Source: a virus
Virus record (IMG/VR): IMGVR_UViG_3300045988_136409
DNA: 39,499 nucleotides
Strand: one strand, 5' to 3'
The notes beneath the pieces were generated by a model that saw nothing but the letters and a program-made list of their open reading frames with translations, searched no databases and was not told where the DNA came from. Shown one piece after another: positions 1,438 to 39,499 of the stretch (its first letter is position 1; each line of letters begins with the position of its first letter). The position numbers and the translations under genes were made by a program.

Positions 1438-1637
1438 AGTATCATCCTCCTTAAAATAGGCATAAAAATGCCCGGACATATGTTTGCATTGCAATCCGTC
1501 CGGGAAAATGATAAAATGCACTTGTTCAAGGTGATTTTTATCGGTTATCCCGGTAAAATCGGATCAGCTCCGGTGCTCCAACACTGGGGCTGATTTATAT
1601 TAATATTTTCAAATTTCAAGATTATTCTTGTAGGATA

Positions 1638-1671: not shown

Positions 1672-1736
1672 CGATTCGAAGCCAGCCCCTGTAAAGGTTC
1701 ACGACAGTGAACTGTTTACACGCTGGCTTTTCCTTT
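1672..1736 (+). ncRNA. candidate ~60-nt antisense sRNA, overlapping the last codons and stop of the SIR2 gene
   Basis: The predicted TSS is about 6-8 nt after the -10. A 51-nt near-perfect hairpin spans 1679-1729: AAGCCAGC/GCTGGCTT, TGTAAA/TTTACA and GTTCAC/GTGAAC, with loop GACA. It is followed by a TTTTCCTTT tract. Confidence 0.45.
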
Positions 1737-3335: not shown

Positions 3336-3349
3336 AAAATTCCTTTCTG

Positions 3350-3363
3350 TTGCACCGGTGCAA
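3350..3363 (-). promoter_or_regulatory. copy 1 of the 14-bp palindrome TTGCACCGGTGCAA (exact)
   Basis: On the minus strand it reads AAATTGCACCGGTGCAACAGAAAGGA and then the SIR2 ATG. It lies between the zinc-ribbon gene and the SIR2 gene. Confidence 0.8.
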
Positions 3364-3388
3364 TTTTTTAAAATGAAGATCATAAATA

Positions 3389-6562: not shown

Positions 6563-6842
6563 CCACAGGTATCCGTGCCCTGTACGTGGTGTATTCCCAA
6601 CACCACACTCCCCTTTTACACAATTAGCGTGTGTGTCCAGTCCTCCCCTGGCTGGGCACCACGTAGAGGGCATGGGGACAAGCATCATATTATAGATCAC
6701 GCTTTGTGCGTGGTGCATCTTGCTGCATCACCATATGACGGCATATCATCCACTGCTATGATGGTATGTTGCCCTCTTTCTGGTGGTACCCGGGTAGATC
6801 AGCACCGGGGCCACGCAGAGAGCGTGATCGGAAAGGGCAAAC
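6563..6842 (+). ncRNA. GC-rich structured non-coding region (candidate cis-regulatory RNA, ncRNA or inverted-repeat element)
   Basis: No credible ORF. Hairpin GTGGTGTattcccaACACCAC lies at about 6586-6606. A long-range imperfect inverted repeat pairs GATCACGCTttgTGCGTGG (6695-6713) with CCACGCAgagAGCGTGATC (6811-6829), enclosing 97 nt that contain further hairpins. The region ends at the RBS of the 6843 gene. Confidence 0.45.
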
Positions 6843-7133
6843 ATGGAAATGATTAAGTATTATGCCAAGGAAGTTGTGAAAAACAAAGACGGTCACAAAT
6901 ACTGGGAAGCCAGCAATTCGCAGCTGACCGGGTATGTCTATGATGAAGTGAAGCAGTCAGTGCCAGAGGCTAAATATTATAACTTTGAAGGCTTGCAGAT
7001 TATTACGACGAATGACAAGCAGGAGCAGTCATTGCTGAGCACACTGGAAGTGATGGAGGACCTTTGCAATGAAAGGATAATCCAGATACATAGACTGAGA
7101 GATCAGATATATGGAGGGGATGCGGATGTATAA
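6843..7133 (+). CDS. hypothetical protein
   Basis: 96-aa ORF with a GGAAAGGG RBS-like sequence upstream. Confidence 0.55.
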   Translation: MEMIKYYAKEVVKNKDGHKYWEASNSQLTGYVYDEVKQSVPEAKYYNFEGLQIITTNDKQEQSLLSTLEVMEDLCNERIIQIHRLRDQIYGGDADV

Positions 7134-7425
7134 AGATATTATGATATCACTCCTCGGAGCGTGGATTTTGAGGGATGCTTTTGGGACAACAGAAGTAAGA
7201 GAGCAGATCGCCATTGTCATAGGCTTGGCGGCAGTGCTTTTTATTTTTTTGCTTTTTTTGGAAAATCAAGTGGAAAAATGGCGGGAATACTGCCAGCGAG
7301 TACGGGATCTGGAGCAGAGGCTAGGGCAACTGAGAGGAGGCGGAAAGCGTGAAAGACGAGAGAGTGCAGGAGATTATGGAGAGGTTGGAACAGACCCCGA
7401 CAGAGCCATTAATGATGCTGGTTGA
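7126..7425 (+). CDS. hypothetical membrane protein
   Basis: Contains the hydrophobic segment IAIVIGLAAVLFIFLLFL. ATG 7126 follows GGAGGGG. Confidence 0.45.
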   Translation: MYKDIMISLLGAWILRDAFGTTEVREQIAIVIGLAAVLFIFLLFLENQVEKWREYCQRVRDLEQRLGQLRGGGKRERRESAGDYGEVGTDPDRAINDAG

Positions 7426-7696
7426 CCATGAGGCACAGGAGGTTTTCCCGTATGTCCTCCGGAAGTATCAGAATGCACATCTGGTCATGATGAAGGGCAT
7501 CCGGTATATCACAATCACCGATGATGCCATCCAGGTCATACTGGACCGCCTGCAGCGTGAGAGGGCAGATTTTAAACGCACGGTGGAGTACTACGACAGG
7601 GAGATCCAGGGCGTGGAGTACCTGCTGACAGGTAAAAAGCGGTACTACTGGTCACCGGATAATTACATAGTAGAGCCTGTCTACGCAGAGCAATAA
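7349..7696 (+). CDS. hypothetical protein
   Basis: 115 aa with a GTG start after GGAGG. It overlaps the previous ORF out of frame. Confidence 0.5.
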   Translation: MKDERVQEIMERLEQTPTEPLMMLVDHEAQEVFPYVLRKYQNAHLVMMKGIRYITITDDAIQVILDRLQRERADFKRTVEYYDREIQGVEYLLTGKKRYYWSPDNYIVEPVYAEQ

Positions 7697-7700
7697 AAAA

Positions 7701-7809
7701 GCCGGCATTTGGCGATGCCGGCCAGCTCACAGAGCTACTTATATAGACAAGATAAGTATACCTCTGTAAGCCGGAAAAGTCAAGAAAAATGGGGCTTTTT
7801 GAAAGCCCC
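7701..7809. promoter_or_regulatory. cluster of three hairpins upstream of the Rep-like gene (candidate origin or nick-site region)
   Basis: GCCGGCATttggcgATGCCGGC (7701-7722), ACTTATatagacaagATAAGT (7737-7757) and GGGGCTTTttgAAAGCCCC (7791-7809). Confidence 0.4.
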
Positions 7810-7849
7810 TGCGCACTTGATAAAGATATTAAAGTTAGGATACAGAGAC

Positions 7850-8647
7850 ATGGTTAAGAGAAAGAAAATAAGGCTAAGACATGGGGATGTGCTGGACGTG
7901 GAAGAATACCACGATGGCAACTATGGATCCCCAGGGAAGAGCAGACAGAAGAAGGAGAAGCCGACCAAGGAACAGGTGCGGCTGATCAATCAGAGGAACA
8001 AGGTCAGGAGATGTAGATGGAGGCTGATCCAGTACTTTGACCAGGGAGATTTGTTTATCACATGGACATATGCAGTAGGGAATCGTCCGCCGGATATGGA
8101 AGGAGCGCTGAAGGACTTCCGGGCAGCAATCACCAAGATCCGGAAGATCTACCGGGCCAGGGGCGTACCGCTCTACTGGATTAGGAACATAGAAAAGGGA
8201 ACCAAGGGAGCCTGGCATATCCATCTTGTGATAAAGCAGACACCGAAGGGTGATGCGGCTGCTATCGTGACCAAGGCATGGACAAAGGGCGGCACCTACG
8301 TGGCAGAGATCTGTCACAGCAAGTTTACAGGAGACGACATGGAGCAGCTGGCGAATTACCTGACCAAGGACGAGCACACAGCGGAGACCAAGGCAGACGG
8401 CACACCGGGCAAACCAAGGATTGCGGAGTCATCATACAACACTAGCCGTAATATGCCGCTTCCGGAGCCACGGACGGACAAGCTGGTCCGATGGAAGCTG
8501 GAGGTCAAGCCGCCCAAGGGATATTACATAGCCCGGATCCATGAGGGCATCAATCCGGTGACAGGATTCCTGTACAGGAGTTACACATTGATCAGACTTA
8601 AAACGCAAGAGCGGAAGAAACCGCCGAACAGGGTAAGGAGGTGTTGA
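7850..8647 (+). CDS. HUH-endonuclease-type rolling-circle replication initiator-like protein
   Basis: AWHIHLVIK is an HUH-like motif (HxH followed by hydrophobics), and QLANYLTKDEH provides a downstream Tyr. The N-terminus is basic. Start set at MVKRKKIRL (ATG 7850). Confidence 0.55.
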   Translation: MVKRKKIRLRHGDVLDVEEYHDGNYGSPGKSRQKKEKPTKEQVRLINQRNKVRRCRWRLIQYFDQGDLFITWTYAVGNRPPDMEGALKDFRAAITKIRKIYRARGVPLYWIRNIEKGTKGAWHIHLVIKQTPKGDAAAIVTKAWTKGGTYVAEICHSKFTGDDMEQLANYLTKDEHTAETKADGTPGKPRIAESSYNTSRNMPLPEPRTDKLVRWKLEVKPPKGYYIARIHEGINPVTGFLYRSYTLIRLKTQERKKPPNRVRRC

Positions 8648-8651
8648 TAAA

Positions 8652-9140
8652 TTGGAAAATGAATTGAAAGTAGTGGATATCTTTATAGGCACGACTCTCC
8701 GGGGATCCGCAAAGGGCTCCGGCCGGGCAATGTACATCATGAGGACAAAGCGCAAGAACGGCAGTGACTATGAAGCTGCTCCTCAGATCGTAGAGTATGA
8801 CGATACCACGGAGAGCGAGTCAGTCCTGCGTGCCATCCGTGATGCCCTGCAGCGACTCCATTATGCCTGTACTGTAGTGATCCATACAGAGTGCAGCAAC
8901 GTGGCAGCAGCCATCGCACAGCACTGGCCGGAGAAGTGGCAGCACGATGGCTGGAAGAACGCTAAGGGCAATCCGGTAAAAAACGCAGTCTTGTGGGAAA
9001 TGCTCCTCCAGGACGTGGAAGAGGGCGGTCATATCCTGCTGGCAGAGAGCGAAAAACACGAATATGCGGAGTGGATGCGGTTTAATCTGCCGCTGAAACG
9101 GGCATTAAAAGACATATTTGCAGAAGTGCCGAAAAACTAA
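8652..9140 (+). CDS. RNase HI-like fold protein, possibly catalytically divergent
   Basis: WPEKWQHDGWKNAKGNPVKNAVLWEML matches the RNase HI W..W..GW....G.PVKN..LW block. The first catalytic Asp position reads IFIGTT. TTG start after AAGGAGG. Confidence 0.5.
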   Translation: MENELKVVDIFIGTTLRGSAKGSGRAMYIMRTKRKNGSDYEAAPQIVEYDDTTESESVLRAIRDALQRLHYACTVVIHTECSNVAAAIAQHWPEKWQHDGWKNAKGNPVKNAVLWEMLLQDVEEGGHILLAESEKHEYAEWMRFNLPLKRALKDIFAEVPKN

Positions 9141-9175
9141 CAGCATGAGTAGGTTACTTATGTTAGAGACCAATC

Positions 9176-9189
9176 CGGTGACGTCACCG
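9176..9189. promoter_or_regulatory. 14-bp perfect palindrome CGGTGACGTCACCG (possible operator)
   Basis: The sequence is self-complementary and lies in the intergenic region 9141-9314. Confidence 0.4.
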
Positions 9190-9282
9190 AAATGGTAGAA
9201 ATAGAACATTTTGTCAAGAAAAGGTAACAGCTTATTACAAAATGAAACGAAATCGCACCCGAATGATACGTTTTTTGAAAAA

Positions 9283-9296
9283 TTGCATCGGTGCAA
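9283..9296 (+). promoter_or_regulatory. copy 2 of the palindrome (TTGCAtCGGTGCAA, 1 mismatch)
   Basis: AAATTGCATCGGTGCAACCGGGGAAAGGAGAACAG followed by the ATG at 9315. Confidence 0.65.
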
Positions 9297-9314
9297 CCGG
9301 GGAAAGGAGAACAG

Positions 9315-9839
9315 ATGGAGAAGAAATTTGGAATATTTAATACCGTAGAGGAGTTAAACAGGGCAGCAGCCGCCCAGAAGGCAGAGGGGGACCTGGAAGC
9401 GCTGATCGGACTGGCCACAGAGAACGGACTGGAGAAAGAGGATGCCGAGGACTACATGGACAGCGACGATGCAGAGGATACTCTGTGCAATGAGACAATG
9501 GCAGCAATCGGTAAGCTGAAACTGGAAGCAGAGGACCTGAAGCTGGAGAGCCAGATGAAGGACTGGAAAGATTTTGTGGTCCAGATGCTGATGGAATATC
9601 CGACACAGCACATGGAAGAGGACGGTGCAGCTCTGGCCAATGCCGTATTTAATCCGGATAAAAAGCTTTTGGATGTGCTGGCCGCCGGACTGAAACAGGC
9701 ATCGAAAAACCGAGTAACGGTTGACCGGAGAATCACAAAGGCAGCAGGATTGCCGGAGAGCGCCGGACAGATTGGAATGTGCGGGCGTGATGACTTAAAA
9801 AAGATCATCTTGGATTATTACATGGGAGAGAAGAAATGA
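9315..9839 (+). CDS. hypothetical acidic protein
   Basis: Start at MEKKFGIF after AAAGGAG. 174 aa. Confidence 0.6.
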   Translation: MEKKFGIFNTVEELNRAAAAQKAEGDLEALIGLATENGLEKEDAEDYMDSDDAEDTLCNETMAAIGKLKLEAEDLKLESQMKDWKDFVVQMLMEYPTQHMEEDGAALANAVFNPDKKLLDVLAAGLKQASKNRVTVDRRITKAAGLPESAGQIGMCGRDDLKKIILDYYMGEKK

Positions 9840-10420: not shown

Positions 10421-12537
10421 AGTGGAGAGAAATACTGAAAGCACCGTTGATACCACGGACAAAAAGTAGGAAGAAAGAAAACCAGATCACTTTTCAGGCG
10501 ACGGACCAGTACCTGATCATGGACATCTGGAAAAATAAAGTAAATATCTGCCGGCACGCCGTAGACCGGAAAACATGGGAATACGGCACCTATTACGTCG
10601 GATCAGGCAAAAAAGAGCAGACCAATCTGACAAATTGCACGGAAGGATTTGGAGGATGTTACTGGGGATCGGAACCGTGTAAGGGAGATTGGCTGGAAGA
10701 AAAACAGGCAAAAGAACTGGAGAAGTTTGTCCCGATGCATGATTACAGTTGGATCAGCGATCCCTTGCGGAGGATATGTCGGATGGAAAAAGACTACAGT
10801 GCGGATAAGAGGGAACGTGCCAGAGACCGGAAAGAACAGAGAATCAGAGATCTCATGAATAAGTGTCCTAAGCCGGGACACAGGGTATATGACTGGATCA
10901 CTGAGAGACTGGTAGGAGATCTCCAGTATGCCTTTTATAACAAGCAGGACAAGACCTGTCATTGTACCGCATGCAACGGGGATTTTAAAGAAGAGGCAGC
11001 AGATGTCCCCGTAAAACATCGTAAACAGATCAAATGTCCTCTCTGTGGCCATGACCTGACGGTGGAAAAAACAAGGGGAAGAATCCAAACAATCGGATGG
11101 CTGACGATGATCCACGACGTGGACGAGAAACAGGGAGTAGAGAGACATTTTAAGGTAACGGTGGACTGGCACAGAACAGGAAAGAGAGATACAGAGCTGG
11201 ATGAACAGATCCGCCTGATGATGCTCCGAGGAGCAAAGGATTTTATGAAAATCTATTACTACTGTGATGTGTACTGGTGCGGATGGCACGACCACAATCC
11301 ACAGAGCAGACGCTGGCATACATCCTACCTGTATCCAGATACAGAAGGAATCAAAGCAGGGCTGAAAGCTACGGCATACGAAGCCTGGTCAGATGTCATG
11401 CCAATGCTGGCACAGATGGGGATTAAGGCATTTTATAACGGATTGCTTGTGGAAAGCAATAAGCAATTTACCGGTATCGCAGAGTATATGGCAAAGGGAC
11501 GCTTTTACCGTCTGCTGGATGAACTGTCACAGTGTATTACATACTGGGGCGGGTATTCGGGGAGAACAATCGAAGTAAACGGTGAATGCATGGAAGATAT
11601 TTTACTGATAGATGACAAGCAGCTAGTCAACCGCCTGCGGCAGGAAAACGGCGGAATGCAGATGCTGCGTTGGATGCAGTGGTCAGAACTGGAAGAAAGA
11701 AAGCTGTCGGCAGAATTTATCGCATGGACAGAAAAAAACAGAATTGATCCGGAGGACTATGATAAATCTCTCGCCGGAGAATACATGTCTCCGGAACAGC
11801 TGATGAATTACCTGAACCGGCAGAAAAAGGAATCGTATCCGGGAATGAAGATCCAGGATGTCTGGAATCAGTACGAGGACTATCTGTCCATGTCACGAAC
11901 GCTGGGAAAACACATGGATGATGCACTGGTACACCGCCCCAGGGAATTGAAGCGCCGGCACGATGAAGTGAATGAGGAAGTGGAACTGCACAGGGAAGAA
12001 TTTGAAAGGAAAAGAAATGCGGAAATGGCAAGGAAGCAGGCGGAGGAGATGAGGAACAAGTATCCGGGATATGAGGATATCCTCTCCGAGATCAGCGAGA
12101 AGTTTGAGTATCAGAATGACACCTATTGTATTGTGGTTCCCAGGGACTTTATGGAGATTACAGCAGAGGGCATGGCACTGCATCACTGCGTCGGTAACAC
12201 GGAGAGATATTTTGACCGGATTGTCAGCAGAGAGACCTATATCTGCTTCCTGCGGCAGCAGTCGTCCCCGGATAAGCCTTTTTACACGATAGAGGTGGAG
12301 CCGGGCGGTACCATCCGCCAGCACCGGGGAGCCTACGACGAGGAGCCGGGCATAGAAGAGATCAAGCCGTTCCTGAGGGAGTGGCAGAAGGTGATTCGCA
12401 AGCGCATGAGCAGGCAGGATCATGAATATGCCGCACAGAGTGAGATCCTGCGGCAGAAGAACATAGAAGAACTGAAGGCAAAGAATAATACTGTGGTCCT
12501 GAAAGGACTGGCAGAAGATCTGATGGAGGTAATCTGA
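10417..12537 (+). CDS. PcfJ-like domain protein with zinc-finger region
   Basis: C-terminal GMALHHCVGNTERYFDRIVSRETYICFLR...PFYTIEV is the PcfJ-like signature. CHCTACNG...CPLCGH provides two Cys pairs. ATGA overlap start at 10417. Confidence 0.65.
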   Translation: MKWREILKAPLIPRTKSRKKENQITFQATDQYLIMDIWKNKVNICRHAVDRKTWEYGTYYVGSGKKEQTNLTNCTEGFGGCYWGSEPCKGDWLEEKQAKELEKFVPMHDYSWISDPLRRICRMEKDYSADKRERARDRKEQRIRDLMNKCPKPGHRVYDWITERLVGDLQYAFYNKQDKTCHCTACNGDFKEEAADVPVKHRKQIKCPLCGHDLTVEKTRGRIQTIGWLTMIHDVDEKQGVERHFKVTVDWHRTGKRDTELDEQIRLMMLRGAKDFMKIYYYCDVYWCGWHDHNPQSRRWHTSYLYPDTEGIKAGLKATAYEAWSDVMPMLAQMGIKAFYNGLLVESNKQFTGIAEYMAKGRFYRLLDELSQCITYWGGYSGRTIEVNGECMEDILLIDDKQLVNRLRQENGGMQMLRWMQWSELEERKLSAEFIAWTEKNRIDPEDYDKSLAGEYMSPEQLMNYLNRQKKESYPGMKIQDVWNQYEDYLSMSRTLGKHMDDALVHRPRELKRRHDEVNEEVELHREEFERKRNAEMARKQAEEMRNKYPGYEDILSEISEKFEYQNDTYCIVVPRDFMEITAEGMALHHCVGNTERYFDRIVSRETYICFLRQQSSPDKPFYTIEVEPGGTIRQHRGAYDEEPGIEEIKPFLREWQKVIRKRMSRQDHEYAAQSEILRQKNIEELKAKNNTVVLKGLAEDLMEVI

Positions 12538-17320: not shown

Positions 17321-18322
17321 ATGACTAAAAATGATTTAATCAACGACGTAGCTTATGAATTACGTGACAGCATGACCAAGGAACAGATCGACCGGATGAA
17401 GATTACGCTTTACGTAAAATTGCAGGATTTTGAGCTGGCAGAGATCAAACAGCTGCCTATGACTATGGAGCATGACAATGAGTGGTTAATGCAAAGGTAT
17501 TGTGTAGACAGCGTGGCAGCAGGACTCCATGCCGGAACTATCAGGAGTTATATTGGAATCATAAAGAAATTCTTTGACTTTGTGAATAAAAATTATAAAT
17601 ATGTGACAGCGCAGGATATCACAGATTATCTTGCTATTAGATCCTATCGTGATCACATCAGCCACAATTATAAATCCACAATATACCGGTACTTATGCAC
17701 ATTCTTTTCCTGGGCATTTAAAAAGAGGCATATCCAGGATAATATCATTGATGGCGTTGATCGTGTTAAGCAGGTGAAAAAGAAGAAGGTACGATTGACA
17801 GATGAGGAAGTTGAAACTATCCGCTATGCGCTGCAAACGCCAAAGGAGAAGGCGTTGTTTGAATTGATGATTTGTACCGGCATGCGTGTAGGTGAAATCT
17901 CTTACCTCAACGTGTCAGATATTGATCTGACAAATAAGCAGGTATCAATTTACGCAGAAAAAACGGACACATATCGCACAGGAATGCTCACTCCGGTAGC
18001 TGTGATGGCACTGAGAAATTACATTGGGGACAGACCGGGAACAGATCCGCTGTTTTTGGCAGATCGGGCACCGCATAACAGAATGAAAGAGTATGGAATT
18101 GAAAAGCTGGCTAAAGAAATGGCTGTCCGTGGCGGAGTAACCAGGATTACCGCAACCGTGCATGTGTACCGCAAGACCTTTGCAAGCGTATTATATCGCA
18201 AGACGGGTGATGTCCTGCTGGTGAGTAAATTACTTGGCCATGCTAAGCCGGACATGACAGTGCAGTATTATCTGATCGACGATATCGAAGAAATGCAGCA
18301 CAAGTATAACAGAGTAGCATAG
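17321..18322 (+). CDS. second tyrosine recombinase, XerC/XerD-like
   Basis: N-terminal SAM-like core-binding region (ITDYLAIRSYRDHISHNYKSTIYRYLCTFFSWAFKK). Catalytic region GMRVGEISYL, HVYRKTFAS and LLGHAKPDMTVQYY. Confidence 0.85.
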   Translation: MTKNDLINDVAYELRDSMTKEQIDRMKITLYVKLQDFELAEIKQLPMTMEHDNEWLMQRYCVDSVAAGLHAGTIRSYIGIIKKFFDFVNKNYKYVTAQDITDYLAIRSYRDHISHNYKSTIYRYLCTFFSWAFKKRHIQDNIIDGVDRVKQVKKKKVRLTDEEVETIRYALQTPKEKALFELMICTGMRVGEISYLNVSDIDLTNKQVSIYAEKTDTYRTGMLTPVAVMALRNYIGDRPGTDPLFLADRAPHNRMKEYGIEKLAKEMAVRGGVTRITATVHVYRKTFASVLYRKTGDVLLVSKLLGHAKPDMTVQYYLIDDIEEMQHKYNRVA

Positions 18323-18337
18323 TAACAGCACCGGAAA

Positions 18338-18351
18338 TTGCACCGGTGCAA
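18338..18351 (+). promoter_or_regulatory. copy 4 of the palindrome (exact)
   Basis: AAATTGCACCGGTGCAACAGAAAGGAGAAAGCATCG followed by the rinA-like ATG. The 26 nt at 18335-18360 are identical to minus-strand 3366-3341. Confidence 0.8.
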
Positions 18352-18370
18352 CAGAAAGGAGAAAGCATCG

Positions 18371-18799
18371 ATGCAAAGAATTAACAGAGCAAGCTGGAGG
18401 ATTATCGAAACTATATTATTACGGTATCCCCAACGAAAGAAAGAATATGAGGAGTACATATCAGACATTATGGCATCACCGGCGGGAGGCAGCAGTCGTC
18501 CGTCGGATCCTGCCAGGGAAAGAGATAAGGCACAGTCTGTCACAGAGGCAAAAGCCTTGAAGATGACATCCGTATACCATGAACGGATCAAGAAAGAGAT
18601 TGAGGCAGTGGAATTTGTATATAATTCTCTTCGGCCAGAAGAACAGAAGGTAATAAGAATCAGGTACTGGAGTAAAGGTCTCAGAGCACCGATTCCCTAC
18701 CTAAAAATCGGTGGTGCCTCGTACAGTGAGAGACAAATGAAGAGGATAGTTTTTAAGACCATAGAACAGATTGGAAGGTATATTGGGGAGTTAAAGTAA
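18371..18799 (+). CDS. RinA-family phage late transcriptional activator-like protein
   Basis: 142 aa with the architecture YPQRKKEYEEYISDIM...GGSSRPSDP...IEAVEFVYNSLRPEEQKVIRIRYW...SERQMKRIVFKTIEQIGRYIG. It sits directly upstream of terS. Confidence 0.65.
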   Translation: MQRINRASWRIIETILLRYPQRKKEYEEYISDIMASPAGGSSRPSDPARERDKAQSVTEAKALKMTSVYHERIKKEIEAVEFVYNSLRPEEQKVIRIRYWSKGLRAPIPYLKIGGASYSERQMKRIVFKTIEQIGRYIGELK

Positions 18800-18860
18800 A
18801 AGATGGCATAATTTCGCATGTCAAATGTGATAATATAGTATCGTGATAAATTAGTGACAG

Positions 18861-18890
18861 GGCAATGCAGATAGCTGCGTTGCCTTTTTT
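18861..18890 (+). terminator. rho-independent terminator between rinA-like gene and terS
   Basis: GGCAATGCAG atag CTGCGTTGCC followed by TTTTTT. Confidence 0.75.
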
Positions 18891-18897
18891 CGTGGAG

Positions 18898-18911
18898 TTG
18901 CACCGGTGCAA
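18898..18911 (+). promoter_or_regulatory. copy 5 of the palindrome (exact; 16-bp perfect GTTGCACCGGTGCAAC)
   Basis: It lies 7 nt after the terminator T-tract and 21 nt before the terS ATG. Confidence 0.8.
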
Positions 18912-18932
18912 CTTTAGAGAGATGGTGAGCAG

Positions 18933-19502
18933 ATGGCCAAAGGCAAATACAAATATTGGCTGACACCGGAAGGCTTACTAAAGCTGGAAGGATGGACAAG
19001 AGATGGACTAACAGAAGAGCAGATCGCTGGTAATATGGGAATCTCCAGGTCTACATTAAATGAATGGAAAAAATTGTATCCGGACATTTCGGACACCCTA
19101 AAAAAGGGAAAGGAAGTTGTGGACCTGCAAGTGGAAAATGCGCTCTTAAAAAGGGCACTGGGATATCGGTATACAGAAGATAAATATGTAAGCGTTCCGA
19201 TGGAGCAGGAAGAATATAGTCAAAAGCTATTTGAATATATGAATCGCTACAAACTGGAGCATCCGGAGGCAACAGATGATGAGCTGATGCTTGTAAGAGA
19301 GAAGTTCCCTAAAACAAAAGAAATGCTTGTGGAACGAAAAGTAAAAGAAGTAGAGCCGGATACCACGGCCCAGATATTCTGGTTGAAGAACCGGAAACCG
19401 GATAAATGGAGAGATAAACAGGATGTCCAGATCTCCGGAGAACTCAAGTCCGAACAGAGTAAACTGGATGACCTGATTAGACAGATGCGTGGTGATGGGT
19501 AA
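18933..19502 (+). CDS. terS: terminase small subunit
   Basis: N-terminal HTH WTRDGLTEEQIAGNMGISRSTLNEWKK. It lies directly upstream of, and overlaps (TAATG), the large subunit gene. Confidence 0.8.
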   Translation: MAKGKYKYWLTPEGLLKLEGWTRDGLTEEQIAGNMGISRSTLNEWKKLYPDISDTLKKGKEVVDLQVENALLKRALGYRYTEDKYVSVPMEQEEYSQKLFEYMNRYKLEHPEATDDELMLVREKFPKTKEMLVERKVKEVEPDTTAQIFWLKNRKPDKWRDKQDVQISGELKSEQSKLDDLIRQMRGDG

Positions 19503-33931: not shown

Positions 33932-34144
33932 ATGAGCAATTTAGAAATCAGGGAATTTAGTCAGGCAATTACAAACTTTGTGGATAGTTCCGGGTTGCCG
34001 GAGGAGGTCAAGCGTATGGCACTGCAGGAGGTGCTGACACGTCAGGAGCAGAAAGCGCGGGAGGCATTGTTAGCGGAGATTAAAGCCAGGGATGTGACCG
34101 AGGCGAAACAGGAAGAGGTGAAGCAGGATGCAGAAAGCGTATGA
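33932..34144 (+). CDS. hypothetical small protein
   Basis: 70 aa with a GGAGGA RBS. Confidence 0.55.
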   Translation: MSNLEIREFSQAITNFVDSSGLPEEVKRMALQEVLTRQEQKAREALLAEIKARDVTEAKQEEVKQDAESV

Positions 34145-35138
34145 ACCCACAGTATGGAAAAACAAACCGTCGGTGGATACTCCGCTGAATGAAACGAATC
34201 TGAATAAATTGAGTCAGGGTGTGAGCGAGATTGATAACCGAGTGATTACCTTGAATATGACCAAGTTTGAGAAAACGGATGCGCAGTCCTGCATCAAAAA
34301 GATCGAGTATGACAAGGCAACAGGTAAGTTTACCATCACAGCGGTCTCCGGCGCACAACAGGTTATTGATACTATGCTCGAAAAGCTGGCGGTCAATTTT
34401 GACTACGATCCCACTGCACAGCAGCTGATCATCACGCTGGATGACGGCAGTAAAAAATACGTGGATCTGTCAGCACTGATCACACAGTTTGAATTTGTGG
34501 ACTCCAATATCGTTTATTGGACGGTAGGAGATGATGGCAAAGTAAAGGCTGACATCAAAAACGGCAGCATTACGGCGGATAAACTGCAGCCTAATTACCT
34601 GGCAGACATCACTGTGCAGGCAGAAAACGCAAGCGCTTCTGCGACTGCAGCGGCAAAGTCAGCGACGGCGGCAGCGGGATCTGAGACGGAAGCAGCCCAG
34701 TCTGAGGAAAATGCCAGGGTATCTGCAGAGCAGGCAGGGATATCAGCTGATAATGCCAGTGCAAGTGCCACAGCGGCAGCAGGATCCGAAACGGCAGCAG
34801 CAAAGTCTGCGGAATCTGCGCAGACCACCAGCAAACACGCAGAGGATTTGGTGGAAGATGTTACACAAAAACTGGAGACCGGTCAATTTAACGGTCCTCA
34901 AGGCATTCAGGGTCCGAAAGGTGATAAGGGAGATAAAGGAGACAAGGGGGATAAAGGGGATCCTGGGGAGAAGGGTGATCGTGGAGACAGTGGGGTGACA
35001 GTGCCAATAAACGGTATGTTTACCCTGTCTGGGGACGCAGAGGGGAACCTGTGGGCGTACTACGCAGATGACACGACACCCCCACAGTTCGAAGTAGACG
35101 AAGAAGGAAACATATATTATTTAACACCAGATGCATAG
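34128..35138 (+). CDS. tail fibre protein with Ala-rich repeats and collagen-like G-X-Y tract
   Basis: GPQGIQGPKGDKGDKGDKGDKGDPGEKGDRGDSG (34893-34994), with duplicated ASASATAAA...GSETAAA segments. Confidence 0.75.
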   Translation: MQKAYEPTVWKNKPSVDTPLNETNLNKLSQGVSEIDNRVITLNMTKFEKTDAQSCIKKIEYDKATGKFTITAVSGAQQVIDTMLEKLAVNFDYDPTAQQLIITLDDGSKKYVDLSALITQFEFVDSNIVYWTVGDDGKVKADIKNGSITADKLQPNYLADITVQAENASASATAAAKSATAAAGSETEAAQSEENARVSAEQAGISADNASASATAAAGSETAAAKSAESAQTTSKHAEDLVEDVTQKLETGQFNGPQGIQGPKGDKGDKGDKGDKGDPGEKGDRGDSGVTVPINGMFTLSGDAEGNLWAYYADDTTPPQFEVDEEGNIYYLTPDA

Positions 35139-35149
35139 GAGGATAGATT

Positions 35150-36079
35150 ATGTCAAAAGTGTTGATCGGAAATTTTAAAGGACCACAGGGAGAACAGGGG
35201 ATTCCAGGTATTCAGGGAGAACAAGGGGAACGGGGGAATAGGGGATCCCGCTGGACCGAAGGGACCGCTATTACCGGGACAAGCACCACACCTACAGTAT
35301 TTAACGGCACAGGAATATCGGATTCACTCGCAGAAGATATGTATCTTAACACAGATACCGGAAATGCATATCGTTGCACGACTGGCGGAGAGGCTACGGT
35401 AGCAAAGTGGGTGTACGCCTGTAATCTTAAAGGCATCAAGGGTGATACAGGAGCTAAGGGAGATCCCGGAACTGCCGGCCCGAAGGGAGAAAAGGGAGAT
35501 ACAGGAGAACAGGGACCTAAAGGAGAAACACCTACTGTGGCTGACAACATGACCGTGGCTTTTACTGAGGCAGCCACCAGAGAGAATATTTCCACTGGTG
35601 AAAAAGTTTCTACTGTATTTGGAAAAATAAAGAAATTTTTTGCTGATCTCACTGCCCCGGCATTTGCGCAGATGATTACATCTAAGGAGGATCTGTTGGC
35701 TGCAAAGGTGACCGGATATGTGCCGGATGCCAAGGCGGTAGCAGATACATATACTGAGTTAAATGGCAATTTAACTTATTCAACGGAAGAAACAATATGC
35801 GGTAAATGGATTGATGGTAGAAAGATATATCGAGTTGTTAAGCAAGTCACATCAAATATTAATACTAATATTGTTGCATTATCGCTTCCTACCGCATCTC
35901 GTGTTATAGATATCAAAGGTACTATAGATACTAACGAAAACAGAACAATTCCCATTTATTGTACATGGGAAACTGGATTATCAATATATGCATACTACTA
36001 CCAATCTGAAAAAAATATCTATCTTAATAACAAGGTTGGAAGCGGTACGGCATATATAATAGTTGAGTATATTAAATAA
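35150..36079 (+). CDS. collagen-like tail fibre / receptor-binding protein (constant part 35150-35758 plus expressed C-terminal cassette A 35759-36079)
   Basis: Two G-X-Y tracts. The composition switches to AT-rich after ELNGNL. The crossover-like site TAAATGGCAA lies at 35760-35769, within the 18-bp dyad GTTAAATggcaATTTAAC. Confidence 0.8.
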   Translation: MSKVLIGNFKGPQGEQGIPGIQGEQGERGNRGSRWTEGTAITGTSTTPTVFNGTGISDSLAEDMYLNTDTGNAYRCTTGGEATVAKWVYACNLKGIKGDTGAKGDPGTAGPKGEKGDTGEQGPKGETPTVADNMTVAFTEAATRENISTGEKVSTVFGKIKKFFADLTAPAFAQMITSKEDLLAAKVTGYVPDAKAVADTYTELNGNLTYSTEETICGKWIDGRKIYRVVKQVTSNINTNIVALSLPTASRVIDIKGTIDTNENRTIPIYCTWETGLSIYAYYYQSEKNIYLNNKVGSGTAYIIVEYIK

Positions 36080-36412
36080 TTACTTTAATCCATATATCTT
36101 AATATCAGAAAAAGTCCAACCGGAAGATGCGCATGTTTGAATATATATAGATTCATTTACCACATATCCACCAATAGTATAATAATAATCTGATCCAGCA
36201 GCATTATTGTAATATCTTCTAAACCATATTTGTCCAACGACTTTTACAACAGACATATCAATTATAATGTCTTCAATGTGTCCTGCTGTAAATCTTATTA
36301 ATATTTTTTTATATGGAGTGAAATTAATATTATACCTCTGTTCTTTCTGCGACGTTATTGTTGTTAATAATTCAGATGATGACAAATCTAATTTGCCATT
36401 TAGCGTAGTAGA
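36080..36412 (-). other. silent tail-fibre C-terminal cassette B (no RBS or ATG), inverted and tail-to-tail with cassette A
   Basis: The minus-strand frame opens 3 codons before LNGKLDLSSSELL... TAAATGGCAA on the minus strand (plus 36393-36402) is in the same codon phase as site A. About 106 aa, AT-rich. Confidence 0.6.
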
Positions 36413-36456
36413 TCAGATGGCGGGCGCAGCCACAAGAGCGCCAGAAAGGAGCCCAC

Positions 36457-36972
36457 ATGGGTTACATAAAATTTAAAAAGAAAAAGACCGTTACAAAGGT
36501 CATTGTGTCAGAAGAGAGTCCTCATGTGATCCGGATCACCGGAGACAATCTCACAGTAAATACTGACGGCTTCCGCCTCTACCTGGATGAGGGATGCAAA
36601 TACCAGCTGGACAACGGCGAGTATGAGGCATACACAACTTTATTCAGGGAGGGTAACGGCTGGTATGAGCTGTCCGATGACGGATCCGTATATATTGAGC
36701 CGGTTGTACCGGTGCAACCGGAGCCCACAGAAGAGGAGCTTGCAGAGCAGGAACGGCAGCAGCAGATCAGTCAGTTGACAGCGCAGATTGATGACCTTAA
36801 GACCCGGATTGCTGCCAGCGACTATAAAGTCATCAAAACATACGAGTATACTCTTCTCGGTGAGCAGACTGAGTATGACATGGAGACTGTCCATGCAGAG
36901 CGGCAGGCTCTCCGGGATCAGATCAACACCCTGGAGACCCAGCTTGCAGATCTGACCACAACTGCAGAGTAG
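36457..36972 (+). CDS. hypothetical phage protein (XkdW-like position), C-terminal coiled-coil
   Basis: 171 aa with an AAAGGAG RBS. Confidence 0.6.
   Translation: MGYIKFKKKKTVTKVIVSEESPHVIRITGDNLTVNTDGFRLYLDEGCKYQLDNGEYEAYTTLFREGNGWYELSDDGSVYIEPVVPVQPEPTEEELAEQERQQQISQLTAQIDDLKTRIAASDYKVIKTYEYTLLGEQTEYDMETVHAERQALRDQINTLETQLADLTTTAE
36704..36717 (+). repeat. copy 7 of the palindrome (TTGtACCGGTGCAA, 1 mismatch), intragenic
   Basis: CCGGTTGTACCGGTGCAACCGG is a 22-bp near-palindrome. It encodes PVVPVQP. Confidence 0.6.
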
Positions 36973-37087
36973 GAGGTTGCCTATGAGAGTGAGAGACGGT
37001 CCCGAACAATTACATAGTAACCAAGAGCCATGAGCCGATTGCTTCCTTCCGGAGGTGACCGGCTTTTATATTTGAGTGAGGTGCGAC

Positions 37088-37429
37088 ATGAATGAAACCG
37101 AAATGGAACATCGTCTTACAGAGGTAGAATCCAGATCAAAATCCAATACTCATAGGATTGATAAGTTGGAGAGAGTGACGGAAGAAATACATACGATGTC
37201 AAACACGATGATTCAGCTGGTGGAGGAAGTAAAACACACCAATGAGACGGTCTCCAGCCTTGATCAGAAAGTTGAAAAAATGGATGGTCGTGTGGATGAC
37301 ATGGAGCGTGCTCCGGGGAAAGAGTGGAGTAATGCAAAGAGAACAGTATTTAATACTGTAGTAGGAGCAGTGATAGGCTTTTTAATTGCTGGCCTGATGT
37401 GGGCAGCAGTGCAGGCATTTTTAATATAA
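37088..37429 (+). CDS. XhlA-like lysis-associated membrane protein
   Basis: N-terminal coiled-coil (RLTEVESRSKSNTHRIDKLE...) plus C-terminal TM segment VVGAVIGFLIAGLMWAAV. GTGAGGTG RBS. Confidence 0.65.
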   Translation: MNETEMEHRLTEVESRSKSNTHRIDKLERVTEEIHTMSNTMIQLVEEVKHTNETVSSLDQKVEKMDGRVDDMERAPGKEWSNAKRTVFNTVVGAVIGFLIAGLMWAAVQAFLI

Positions 37430-37443
37430 GGAGGATACGAGTT

Positions 37444-37776
37444 ATGAGTACAAGTACAATCATGGTAATTATTTTGGCAGTGCTGACGGCACTGGTAGCA
37501 GGTACCTTTTTATGGATATACATCCGCGATAAGACAATTGATGAGATCAGAGTGGATGTATATCACCTGTTCCTGATAGCGGAACATGCATTCAAGGAAT
37601 CCGGATCCGGGAAACAGAAGATGAAATATGTGGTAAGTCAGGCGAGAAGGCTTTTACCGTCGTGGCTGCAGTATTTTATCACAGACGATTTTTTAGAAAG
37701 CGTAATAGAAAAGTGGTTTCAATCAGTGAAGGATCTGCTGGATGACGGCAAACTGAATGGATCAGAGGAGGAATAA
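37444..37776 (+). CDS. putative holin (N-terminal TM, LL-H-like)
   Basis: The TM segment is IMVIILAVLTALVAGTFLWIYI. AAGGAGGA RBS. Located directly before the lysin gene. Confidence 0.6.
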   Translation: MSTSTIMVIILAVLTALVAGTFLWIYIRDKTIDEIRVDVYHLFLIAEHAFKESGSGKQKMKYVVSQARRLLPSWLQYFITDDFLESVIEKWFQSVKDLLDDGKLNGSEEE

Positions 37777-37779
37777 GCC

Positions 37780-38610
37780 ATGATGAAGGGCATTGACGTA
37801 GCAAAATGGAACGGAGTTATCGACTGGGCGAAGGTGAAAAAGGCAGGGGTAGAGTTTGCCGTCCTGAAAGTCATCGATAAATCCAATAAAACAGAGTCGT
37901 CTTTTGTCAGAAACTATGCGGGAGCAAGCGCACAGGGACTACCTTTGGATGTCTATAATTACCTGTATACTACCACTGAGGCAGCAGCCAGGGAAGCAGC
38001 CAAAGCAGTGGTAAATGCACTTGCCGGGAGAAAGATCGGAAAGGTATGGGCAGATGCGGAGGATGCCTGCCTTAAAAATAAAGGTATTCAGTTGATTTGG
38101 ATCCTTAACACCTATAAGGCAGTGATCGAGGCGGCTGGTTATGAGTTTGGCGTGTATACTGGGTTGTCCTTTTACAACAGTTATATCAAACCTTACAAGG
38201 CTTATATTGACTGTGATTTCTGGATTGCAAGATATCCGTCTACGAAAGATATGACAATTGCTATGGACCCGCCAGCATCAAAAAAACCGGTTATCTGTCA
38301 TAATCTTTGGGGCTGGCAGCATTCCAGCCGCGGTAGAGTGTCTGGAATCAGCGGATATGTAGATATGGATATCTGCTATACAAAGGTGACCAGTAGCGGA
38401 ACCGTGCAGTCAACTACGGCATATTATCCTAGATACACCGGTACATCTGGATCCATTGTAGCGGCACTTAATGCTGTCGGAGTTAACTCCAGTTTTGCCA
38501 ACCGTAAAGCAATCGCGAAGGAAAATGGTATCACAGGATACATCGGATCGGCAAAACAGAATATACAAATGTTAGCATTGCTGAAAAGTGGGAAACTTAA
38601 AAGGACTTGA
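37780..38610 (+). CDS. endolysin, GH25 muramidase with C-terminal cell-wall-binding domain
   Basis: N-terminal MKGIDVAKWNGVIDWAKVKKAGVEFAVLKV is typical of GH25. The C-terminal SIVAALNAVGVNSSFANRKAIAKENGITGYIGSAKQNIQMLALLKSGKL resembles an Amidase02_C-like tail. Confidence 0.85.
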   Translation: MMKGIDVAKWNGVIDWAKVKKAGVEFAVLKVIDKSNKTESSFVRNYAGASAQGLPLDVYNYLYTTTEAAAREAAKAVVNALAGRKIGKVWADAEDACLKNKGIQLIWILNTYKAVIEAAGYEFGVYTGLSFYNSYIKPYKAYIDCDFWIARYPSTKDMTIAMDPPASKKPVICHNLWGWQHSSRGRVSGISGYVDMDICYTKVTSSGTVQSTTAYYPRYTGTSGSIVAALNAVGVNSSFANRKAIAKENGITGYIGSAKQNIQMLALLKSGKLKRT

Positions 38611-38674
38611 TTGACGGTATAATAAATATATGGTAATCTACAACTAGTCCAATTTGAACCTTTTCATTGGTAAA

Positions 38675-38703
38675 GGCGGAGAGTCTCGGAAAAACTCTCC
38701 GCC
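38675..38703 (+). terminator. rho-independent terminator after the lysis genes
   Basis: GGCGGAGAGT ctcggaaaa ACTCTCCGCC followed by the T-rich tgttctcgttt. Confidence 0.6.
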
Positions 38704-38712
38704 TGTTCTCGT

Positions 38713-39009
38713 TTAAATGGCAAGTTTGTGACAGAAAAAGTCGAACTCGGTTCGGATGTAATATTAAACAAAAATAGCAGTTTTACGATCGAATTTAATG
38801 TTACAAAAACTGGATATATACCTATAGCTGTCTGCTCATGGGCACTTTATAATAGAGATAATGCACAATATATCCACGTGAACGGCATTGAAGTTGGAAC
38901 AGGAATAAATACTGGATTTATTTATATACAGGGAAGACACTCTAATTCATCTAACACAGCTAGGATACCAGCTGATGCATATGTCGTAGTTCTATACCAA
39001 GCACAGTAA
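38713..39009 (+). other. silent tail-fibre C-terminal cassette D (no RBS; begins LNGKFVTEK)
   Basis: TAAATGGCAA at 38714-38723 is in the same codon phase as site A and lies 10 nt after the terminator. About 98 aa, AT-rich. The track ORF starts at an internal GTG. Confidence 0.55.
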
Positions 39010-39056
39010 TTTTGAAATATAATGTAAGTGGCAAATTAATACAAAGCACCTAGTAT

Positions 39057-39386
39057 TTAATCAATAATAAATGAACCACTAAATATACATAATCTAATAG
39101 TAGCTTGCGTAATCTCTTGAAAAATATTTCCGTTTGGTAATAATGATATTGTTCCTGCTTGAACATTACTACCATCAAATACTGCACCTAAAATAGATAT
39201 CATGGTTGATGGTCTGTAGCCTTCCGGGAGTGTTCCAATAACAGCTCCATATGGGATACTACAGTCAGTTAATCTAAATGATATATTGACTATTTTACCG
39301 TATTTACGCAATTGAGAATATGTCAATACACCATTTGCAACACCTAATTTGCTACTACCATCTAACATCGCTAACTTGCCATTTAC
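39057..39386 (-). other. silent tail-fibre C-terminal cassette C (begins VNGKLAMLDGSS), inverted and convergent with cassette D
   Basis: TAAATGGCAA on the minus strand (plus 39376-39385) is in the same phase. No RBS before the ATG at 39368. The sequence ...GTLPEGYRPS...LLPNGNI... is typical of fibre-tip domains. Confidence 0.55.
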
Positions 39387-39416
39387 AGAGAAAATAAATT
39401 ACAGGAAACAACTTGA

Positions 39417-39437
39417 TGCAACATGAAATGCAACATG
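39417..39437 (+). repeat. two TGCAACATG direct repeats, candidate integrase arm-type sites (int-distal arm)
   Basis: Copies at 39417-39425 and 39429-39437, in the same orientation and with the same 12-nt spacing as the left array. Confidence 0.6.
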
Positions 39438-39440
39438 AAA

Positions 39441-39473: not shown

Positions 39474-39499
39474 AAGCGCGAGACGGGGATCGAACCCGC
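39474..39499 (-). tRNA. 3' end (T-arm plus acceptor strand) of a tRNA gene continuing beyond the window; attR core
   Basis: The reverse complement is GCGGG TTCGATC CCCGT CTCGCGC T. No CCA is encoded. The isotype cannot be determined from this fragment. Confidence 0.6.

Follow-up and report, generated by a model that had tools for sequence, protein, structure and literature searches.

A probable four-site inversion system for tail-fibre tips in a prophage of gut Lachnospiraceae

The exchange of tail-fibre tips by DNA inversion is known from other phages. In Mu (Gin/G), P1 (Cin/C) and p15B (Min), inversion swaps the C-termini of tail fibres, and thereby host range; these C-termini are encoded by cassettes placed tail-to-tail between inverted sites. 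Gin, Cin and Min are small serine recombinases encoded beside the segment that they invert, and act on 26-bp dyad sites with a 2-bp crossover, together with an enhancer. The shufflon of R64/IncI plasmids (Rci, sfx, pilV) relies on a tyrosine recombinase, Rci, and consists of multiple alternating sites that separate short segments. Each segment is an alternative C-terminus, in frame with one constant N-terminal part, and the variable protein determines the cell surface that is recognised. In the sfx site, a 7-bp core separates a variable left arm from a conserved right arm, each of 12 bp (PMC11852207). Shufflons are also found in temperate gut phages. In the Rin shufflon of Bifidobacterium prophages, an 11-bp asymmetric site precedes each silent C-terminus of a receptor-binding protein, the recombinase is a predicted Xer-like tyrosine recombinase without an arm-binding domain, and isomers occur between prophages (Mavrich et al. 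2018, PMC6109161). The shufflon of a BV01-like Phocaeicola vulgatus phage is a 1.7-kb window flanked by a recombinase, in which three cassettes form a single block (PMC13596623, 2026 preprint). Here we describe a locus in IMG/VR virus record IMGVR_UViG_3300045988_136409, a stretch of 39,499 nucleotides (39.5 kb, hereafter the window) that is a prophage of a human-gut Lachnospiraceae bacterium. Sequence comparisons lead us to regard this locus, with a probability of about 0.8, as a four-site inversion system (shufflon) that would change the C-terminal tip of a tail fibre; the figure refers to the system, not to its enzyme. Tip inversion as such being known, the novelty resides in the layout of the locus and in the unlinked enzyme. 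The locus differs from the R64, Gin/Cin/Min, Rin and BV01-like systems in that it has no adjacent recombinase, an array split by lysis genes, a 14-bp site with co-varying core classes, and modules that occur in unrelated phage types.

The exact 10-mer TAAATGGCAA is found four times in the window, at 35760 (+), 36393 (-), 38714 (+) and 39376 (-), all copies being confined to the last 3.7 kb. Arithmetic assuming uniform composition predicts about 0.08 exact copies on both strands of the window. The four sites, named A, B, D and C in this order, alternate in orientation (+ - + -). The reading phase at each is xTA-AAT-GGC-AAx, and the frame opened there runs for 98-109 codons, in phase with the fibre gene (35150-36079). 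Cassettes B, C and D feature neither a Shine-Dalgarno or ribosome-binding site nor a start codon at the site. A first reading of the window from its letters alone (the original prediction) had described four alternating in-phase 10-mers, each opening an AT-rich frame of about 100 residues without a start, and a search of the window confirmed this description. The G+C content of the cassettes is 28-35%, compared with 44-48% for the rest of the window, and the cassettes share no sequence relatedness with each other. Cassettes A and B abut stop-to-stop (taa-tta, 36077-36082); the A/B and D/C modules span 643 and 672 bp, respectively. A relic fifth site, TAAGTGGCAAATTA, is a cassette that has decayed or else a "null" tip.

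The comparison covered about 160 related loci, drawn from collections of viruses, metagenomes and genomes; loci are designated by L numbers and cassette families by F numbers. The system is common. The fibre constant part has 406 relatives in IMG/VR, 80 loci of which were analysed together with a few genome loci, and metagenome contigs contained 97 exact junctions, 80 of these loci being analysed as well. Sites were classified by flank and cassettes by family. The site-A junction recurs in most of the 80 IMG/VR loci and in 97 metagenome stretches, and in most relatives a site precedes the homologue of gene 36457 by about 55 bp, which is the position of site B. Fibre residues 136-206 are 82-92% identical among the relatives listed. 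In all, some 60 cassette families were counted among the loci compared, their median length being 101 residues.

Modules of 0.6-0.75 kb were seen in both orientations, with breakpoints falling on the sites. For instance, the F7/F12 module is inverted in L017 relative to L029, the F8/F4 module in L037 and L038 relative to L039, L052, L054 and L060, the F1/F9 module in L033 relative to L046, and the F2/F5 module in L041 relative to L064. The F3/F1, F20/F14, F16/F2 and F23/F13 modules were likewise found in both orientations, and more pairs of this kind are present in metagenomes. In the pairs L017/L029, L037/L039, L033/L046 and L041/L064, the segment between the sites is inverted and 95-99% identical (at least 98.5% in three of the four pairs); the flanks are in direct orientation and 78-95% identical. 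The inversion between sites A and B that had been foreseen for the window has many counterparts among its relatives.

Modules and cassettes also vary in location. The F2/F5, F1/F3 and F26/F27 modules are proximal in some loci and distal in others. The family of cassette D is fused to the fibre constant part in five IMG/VR loci (L002, L009, L016, L017 and L022), and that of cassette C in L080, L449 and L470. Cassette A is a silent distal cassette in L458 (96% nucleotide identity), beside the same attachment site. The alignment of cassettes and junctions in related phages, which had been put forward as a check, yielded both isomers and swapped cassettes, in agreement with the original prediction that the cassettes are alternative fibre ends.

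Aligned sites give the 14-mer TAAATGGCAAGTTA, an imperfect palindrome with the consensus TAA(A/C)-TGGCAA-NTTA, beyond which a weak pattern is observed on the flank side only. The 18-bp dyad GTTAAATGGCAATTTAAC, to which the original prediction had drawn attention, is present at site A but absent at the other sites, the general site being the 14-mer. Positions 4 (A/C) and 11 (G/T/A) vary between partner sites, so the exchange can be located. Site B of L460 reads TAAA-TGGCAA-T and site D reads TAAC-TGGCAA-G, and the recombinant site of L440 reads TAAC-TGGCAA-T; the same junction pattern is observed on going from L017 to L022. Because position 4 keeps to the flank and position 11 moves with the cassette, the crossover maps, as judged from these alignments, inside the 6-bp TGGCAA core.

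The core co-varies among the sites of a locus. A single core is found at all sites in 65 of the 66 loci with two or more sites (TGGCAA in 60, TAGGAA in 3, including four-site versions, TGATAA in 1 and TAGCAA in 1). The sole exception, L163, carries TAGGAA at four sites and an overlapping remnant inside a cassette: at 10620-10645, a TAGGAA-class site is followed 12 nt on by a degenerate canonical-like TAAATGGAAAATT. It looks as if a cassette of another core class had been captured along with its old site. Core variants alter the peptide from NGK to NRK, NDK or NSK. L020 and L040 have the same two cassettes (95% and 90% amino acid identity) but a different core at both sites. Altered junctions (TAAATAGGAA and similar) had been considered as "locked", partnerless fibres, and this was rejected, as flank homology revealed partner sites with the same variant core. 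Since cores match at all sites even though the peptide changes, the 10-mer is constrained as DNA and not as protein; conservation at the protein level, which had been named as a finding that would refute an inversion system, is ruled out by these amino-acid-changing cores. On this pattern of covariation, what is required is a crossover region shared by all the sites of a phage.

The region between sites B and D, which encodes a conserved 171-aa protein, holins and an endolysin (hereafter the lysis block), also inverts. It is inverted relative to the fibre in four contigs (L022, L024, L418 and L440), which are short (3.2-5.0 kb). L022 and L017 are 98.9-99.9% identical, with the B-to-D block inverted. 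L024 is 99.9% identical to L023 and L017, again with the block inverted and with other cassettes on the constant part. L440 differs from L460 in the same manner at 97% identity, and L418 has the same layout as L440. The original prediction had called flips of the lysis genes unusual; these four contigs are natural examples. A further rearrangement is observed in L425, which is the L167 prophage of Waltera acetigignens: both lie beside the same host phosphate-transport operon, and their flanks are 98-99% identical. In L425, the fibre module continues straight into the C-side flank, and the entire lysis block is gone. Comparison of the two sequences identifies this as a deletion between two directly oriented sites, one B-type and one C-type.

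Another contig, L007 (IMGVR_UViG_3300029385_000038), features at 6611-9800 two tail modules, 77% identical, that face each other across the shufflon and an inverted lysis block. L007 was considered as an A x C isomer; this was rejected, given the presence of two different tail modules, and the contig was excluded from the evidence. The contig arose either through chimeric assembly across a 99%-identical module or by site-specific recombination between two prophages in one chromosome.

Modules are also shared by unrelated phages. In other phage types, homologues of cassette D follow at least four unrelated N-terminal parts, the point of fusion again being the xNGKL junction. Two of these were traced: L392 is a P2-like myovirus, as evidenced by Baseplate_J, Tail_P2_I and GpU genes, and L388 is a third phage type. 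In both, the F7/F12 module lies between inverted TAAATGGCAAGTT sites. This 774-bp module is 98-99% identical in the siphovirus-type L017, L392 and L388, and outside it the three loci do not match, except that the lysis regions of L392 and L017 have two stretches in common at about 76% identity. Identical 14-bp sites are found in at least three unrelated phage backbones. Read from these alignments, the module is a site-bounded unit that moves between phages without flanking homology.

In the mechanism that we propose, strand exchange would take place inside the 6-bp core of (variable flank)-TAA(A/C)-core-N-TTA-(cassette). The flank up to position 4 would stay in place and the cassette from position 11 on would swap, always landing in frame as ...ELNG(K/N)L.... 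Because the sites alternate, inversion is possible between A and B, between D and C, between B and D, and between A and C. Inversion between A and B would exchange the two proximal tips. Use of a distal tip would need A x C inversion, which would flip the 171-aa gene, the holins and the endolysin too, and a later B x D inversion would restore the orientation of the lysis block. A tyrosine recombinase would act in trans. The same sites would let whole two-cassette modules pass between phages in one cell, and module exchange of this type would give the phage family a shared pool of more than 60 unrelated tip families of about 100 residues each. A broader version of this proposal, which we consider unlikely, would combine a mobile pool of tip modules among unrelated Lachnospiraceae phages, an unlinked recombinase acting in trans, core classes that serve as compatibility groups, and tip switching coupled to an ON/OFF switch of lysis. 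In that version, with lysis genes in the invertible span, the prophage would pass through a non-lytic configuration whenever it used its distal cassettes.

Some observations count against the existence of such a system. All rearrangements are differences between assemblies of related phages, not within one clonal population, and the conserved arms of the site, 4-5 bp in length, are short for a tyrosine recombinase. The structure of the tip does not reveal its function either. Prediction of the tip structures had been suggested along with the inversion, and was carried out for cassette D: the AlphaFold2 model (98 residues, alignment of 20 sequences) is an 8-stranded all-beta domain with a pLDDT of 86 and a pTM of 0.75, for which Foldseek searches of PDB and BFVD returned no significant match. 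The best hit, Helix pomatia agglutinin, an H-type lectin, has an E value of 0.13 and a TM-score of 0.46. The tips presumably bind receptors, as suggested by their position at the end of a collagen-like fibre and not by their fold, and switching may affect host range.

Pfam analysis of 50 open reading frames (ORFs) of the window revealed no serine recombinase or Resolvase family and only two tyrosine recombinases, the prophage integrase and the Xer-like protein encoded at 17321-18322 (hereafter the 17321 protein). The absence of a serine invertase, and the presence of the Xer-like protein as the sole recombinase besides the integrase, had both been recognised in the original prediction. Nor do the annotated surroundings of L388 and L392 include a Resolvase family. 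The overlap in which partner sites have to be identical spans 6-8 bp for tyrosine recombinases but only 2 bp for serine invertases. The covariation at three adjacent core positions, together with the lack of a serine recombinase in the window, favours a tyrosine recombinase as the putative enzyme. In none of the loci examined is a recombinase encoded within 6-10 kb of the shufflon, so that the lack of an adjacent invertase noted for the window extends to its relatives.

The best candidate for the enzyme is the 17321 protein, the alternative being a recombinase encoded by the host or by another prophage in the same cell. Its gene is located 17.4 kb from site A. The protein is XerA/XerD-like according to NCBIfam, with scores below cut-offs; the nearest solved structures are XerA and XerD, and the R, H-x-x-R, H and Y residues do not vary among aligned relatives that are 57-62% identical. 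Recombinases of this 57-62% class are almost absent from IMG/VR. The 17321 protein itself is 88-100% identical in the 80 contigs listed of 98 in IMG/VR. A 74%-identical subtype, P0045, is present in seven more shufflon contigs; in the one measured, the gene is 17.7 kb from the fibre, as in the window. Taken together, the two subtypes are found in at least 28 of the 49 shufflon contigs long enough to show them. We place the chance that the 17321 protein is the invertase just under even.

Several features tell against this assignment. The 17321 family is present in the at least 28 of 49 long contigs mentioned, and not in all of them. Contig IMGVR_UViG_3300045988_096852, which was read end to end (37.8 kb) and features a perfect four-site shufflon, lacks any member of the family; its sole recombinase (L270, 1502-2095, minus strand) is an unrelated, stand-alone tyrosine recombinase of 197 aa that consists of the catalytic domain only, matches PHROG 216 (E = 3.5e-30) and is 25% identical to the 17321 protein in that domain. 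In an unrelated phage with a P22-type portal (L393-L395), the gene for a 60%-identical relative immediately precedes those for the small and large terminase, as in the window (17321-19502). This identical position in an unrelated phage implies that the 17321 family could have another role. No shufflon site is found near the 17321 gene. L040 and L076, the sites of which belong to the TAGGAA class, carry the 17321 family, a co-occurrence that would fit an invertase indifferent to the core sequence.

Other candidates were considered. The integrase is an unlikely invertase, as neither its att core nor its arm repeats resemble the shufflon site. In L208 (Bulleidia metagenome-assembled genome), a recombinase gene follows a collagen-like gene, but there are neither cassettes nor sites. 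In L417, an integrase fragment is found 4 kb upstream, by a truncated tape-measure gene, in what is probably a degraded prophage. Neither locus is a case of an adjacent recombinase. L091 and L119 encode an additional tyrosine recombinase, about 377 aa long and 25% identical, in the stretch about 2 kb upstream of the 17321 homologue and some 0.9 kb away from it.

The strongest rival explanation accepts that inversion is real but assigns it to a trans-acting recombinase encoded by the Lachnospiraceae host or by another prophage in the same cell. Mpi, the master invertase of Bacteroides, acts on many distant loci and may serve as a model. The distribution of identical sites among unrelated backbones, the lack of a recombinase beside the locus and the absence of the 17321 family from contig 096852, with its perfect shufflon, all fit this explanation, as does the fixed place of that family by the terminase genes elsewhere, which suggests a different job. 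Trans-acting invertases have also been raised for a bifidophage locus without a flanking recombinase (Mavrich et al., PMC6109161). In contrast, most window-like shufflon phages have one of the two 17321 subtypes at a fixed distance from the fibre, and a second recombinase needs another function, given that the prophage already encodes a dedicated integrase, which has att and arm sites to itself. On balance, a host or co-resident enzyme is only slightly less probable than the 17321 protein.

Alternatively, the shufflon may be a fossil in this prophage, in which past inversions have left idle sites and stored cassette remnants. The A/B pair and the arrangement of the window are found again in L465, another assembly of this phage with 99.8% identity, a search of metagenome contigs with the start of cassette B yielded no match and no isomer of B, and the relic site with its 9-codon frame shows that decay happens. 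However, all four sites are perfect and all four frames open. Among relatives, the 98-99% identity of modules whose flanks differ by 5-20%, and the existence of isomers at 97-99.9% identity that differ only by inversion, point to recent events, and core covariation implies continuing selection for compatible sites. A fossil is hence improbable, and we infer that the four-site system is still active in this prophage.

It is far less probable that the 10-mer merely encodes a conserved LNGK peptide, the small frames being separate genes or debris and the differences between loci the product of ordinary homologous recombination among mosaic phages. The fibre constant part and the 171-aa gene are conserved at 80-95% and could support exchange among window-like phages. 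Such recombination does not account for variant cores that change the peptide yet match at all sites of a phage, nor for cassettes without start codons or ribosome-binding sites; breakpoints fall exactly at 14-bp sites, too short for RecA-type recombination, and modules move between phages sharing no flanking homology. Least credible of all is assembly artefact from inverted repeats, which might be suspected from the short length of the four inverted-block contigs, as where assembly graphs break, and from the chimeric appearance of L007, but the repeats are only about 14 bp, below usual assembly k-mers, isomers recur in many independent samples and long contigs, and an isolate genome (W. acetigignens, L167) carries the system.

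The four-site system can now be set against those described previously. As in R64, alternating sites separate short segments, alternative C-termini join one constant part in frame, the variable protein would determine the surface recognised, and the enzyme is probably a tyrosine recombinase. At least three alternating sites, typical of a shufflon, are found (four in the window and two to four in relatives), as are in-frame alternative C-termini; an adjacent Rci-type gene is absent. While rci adjoins the R64 shufflon, nothing comparable lies within 6-10 kb here, and the candidate is at a distance of 17.4 kb. The R64 analogy drawn in the original prediction holds for the architecture but only loosely for the site: in contrast to sfx, with its conserved 12-bp arm, both arms are very short here, the 6-bp core being flanked by TAA(A/C) and NTTA only. 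Moreover, R64-type shufflons undergo inversion only, whereas one natural direct-site deletion was observed here (L425 compared with L167), and the array, split in two by essential lysis genes, is carried by a phage instead of a plasmid.

The Mu, P1 and p15B systems resemble the locus in the exchange of fibre C-termini through tail-to-tail cassettes between inverted sites, and p15B Min also has several sites and many isomers. They differ in that here no serine recombinase is found, 14 bp are conserved, three adjacent core positions co-vary, the crossover lies in a 6-bp core, and no dedicated chaperone gene accompanies the cassettes. The Rin shufflon shares with the locus a temperate gut phage as its carrier, a short site for each silent C-terminus and the occurrence of isomers, and a candidate recombinase of similar build is encoded in the window. 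In contrast, rin flanks its cassettes, whereas the candidate here is 17 kb off and not universal; the Rin site, TTCCCTAACCC, is unrelated; and the Rin cassettes form one block, whereas here two blocks, next to attR, are split by lysis genes. Rin hosts are Actinobacteria, and here they are Lachnospiraceae. The BV01-like shufflon is also found in a temperate gut phage, features a 10-bp directional motif with short extensions and non-homologous cassettes at the distal end of the fibre, and has configurations that differ between samples, but its motif, TGGGAGAACT, is different.

Integron cassettes provide an analogy for the exchange only, and membership is not claimed: they too are promoterless, site-bounded units pooled among unrelated replicons. 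Here, there is no attC-type folded site and no adjacent IntI, and units appear to be inverted or exchanged, not inserted as circles. As to diversity-generating retroelements, Pfam analysis of 50 ORFs revealed no reverse-transcriptase family, and the cassettes are mutually unrelated. None of the papers searched describes this site or system, and the GenBank phage collection contains no record with this module.

The coordinates of the features are given in Table 1. The window is a complete prophage, as evidenced by a 26-bp direct repeat at both ends (1-26 = 39474-39499). The repeat resembles a tRNA 3' end, and the right-hand att junction adjoins tRNA-Gly(GCC) in relatives. Copies of TGCAACATGAA are found on both ends of the prophage (141-180 and 39417-39440), and probably serve as arm sites for the integrase. 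Circularisation of the phage would place site C about 0.3 kb from the integrase gene. The hosts named for relatives are Lachnospiraceae, including the W. acetigignens isolate. A promoter and terminator scan of the shufflon region revealed no excess over shuffled controls.

Table 1 Features of the window that belong to, or bear on, the putative inversion system
Feature	Position	Strand	Remarks
Prophage integrase, tyrosine recombinase	187-1521	-	Own att core and TGCAACATGAA arm repeats; Pfam
Xer-like tyrosine recombinase, core-binding and catalytic domains	17321-18322	+	Pfam Phage_integrase (1e-25), SAM_4; candidate invertase in trans
Constant part of tail-fibre gene	35150-35759	+	Pfam Collagen, PHROG tail-fibre families
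Site A, TAAA-TGGCAA-TTTA	35760-35773	+	Junction of constant part and expressed tip
Cassette A, LNGNL..., 106 aa, family F29	35770-36079	+	Expressed end of fibre gene 35150-36079
Cassette B, LNGKLDL..., 107 aa, family F30	36080-36392	-	Silent tip, tail-to-tail with cassette A
Site B, TAAA-TGGCAA-ATTA	36389-36402	-	
Block between sites B and D	36403-38713	+	Pfam, PHROGs; itself invertible
Conserved 171-aa gene	36457-36972	+	B-to-D block
XhlA/haemolysin-like protein	37088-37429	+	B-to-D block; Pfam/PHROGs
Holin-like protein	37444-37776	+	B-to-D block; Pfam/PHROGs
GH25 endolysin	37780-38610	+	B-to-D block; Pfam/PHROGs
Hairpin	38675-38703		B-to-D block, upstream of site D
Site D, TAAA-TGGCAA-GTTT	38714-38727	+	
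Cassette D, LNGKFVT..., 98 aa, family F7	38724-39009	+	Silent tip
Relic fifth site, TAAGTGGCAAATTA	39025-39038	+	One mismatch, core intact; between cassettes D and C; 9-codon frame
Cassette C, VNGKLAM..., 109 aa, family F16	39057-39375	-	Silent tip
Site C, TAAA-TGGCAA-GTTA	39372-39385	-	About 90 bp from attachment-site core

The fibre constant part is composed of collagen-like Gly-X-Y repeats followed by a conserved neck ending in ...AKAVADTYTEL. Collagen-like Gly-X-Y repeats are present both in the fibre gene and in the neighbouring tail gene (34128-35138), which features a long Ala/Ser/Glu-rich stretch ahead of its repeats. The 171-aa protein is 68-98% identical in nearly all relatives and has a distant homologue in the P2-like myovirus locus. 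Its sole match is phrog_17180, a PHROG of unknown function, and it may be a fibre assembly factor. At the other end of the prophage, a SIR2-like protein of 555 aa (1716-3383, minus strand) adjoins the integrase. It matches PADLOC PDC-S25 (E = 7.5e-145) and, more weakly, ThsA, and is probably the product of a prophage-carried anti-phage gene.

Lachnospiraceae are dominant butyrate-producing bacteria of the gut, and to our knowledge their phages are almost unstudied. Lysis genes within the invertible span and the lack of a linked recombinase, neither of which has been described for the Rin or BV01-like phage shufflons, pose questions on how the system is controlled. With its 14-bp site and orthogonal 6-bp cores, the locus would, if active, provide a compact natural scaffold for the engineering of phage host range. 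If the system is active, one prophage could release particles of different receptor specificity, co-resident phages could trade tips without sequence homology, and the prediction of host range from gut viromes would be affected.

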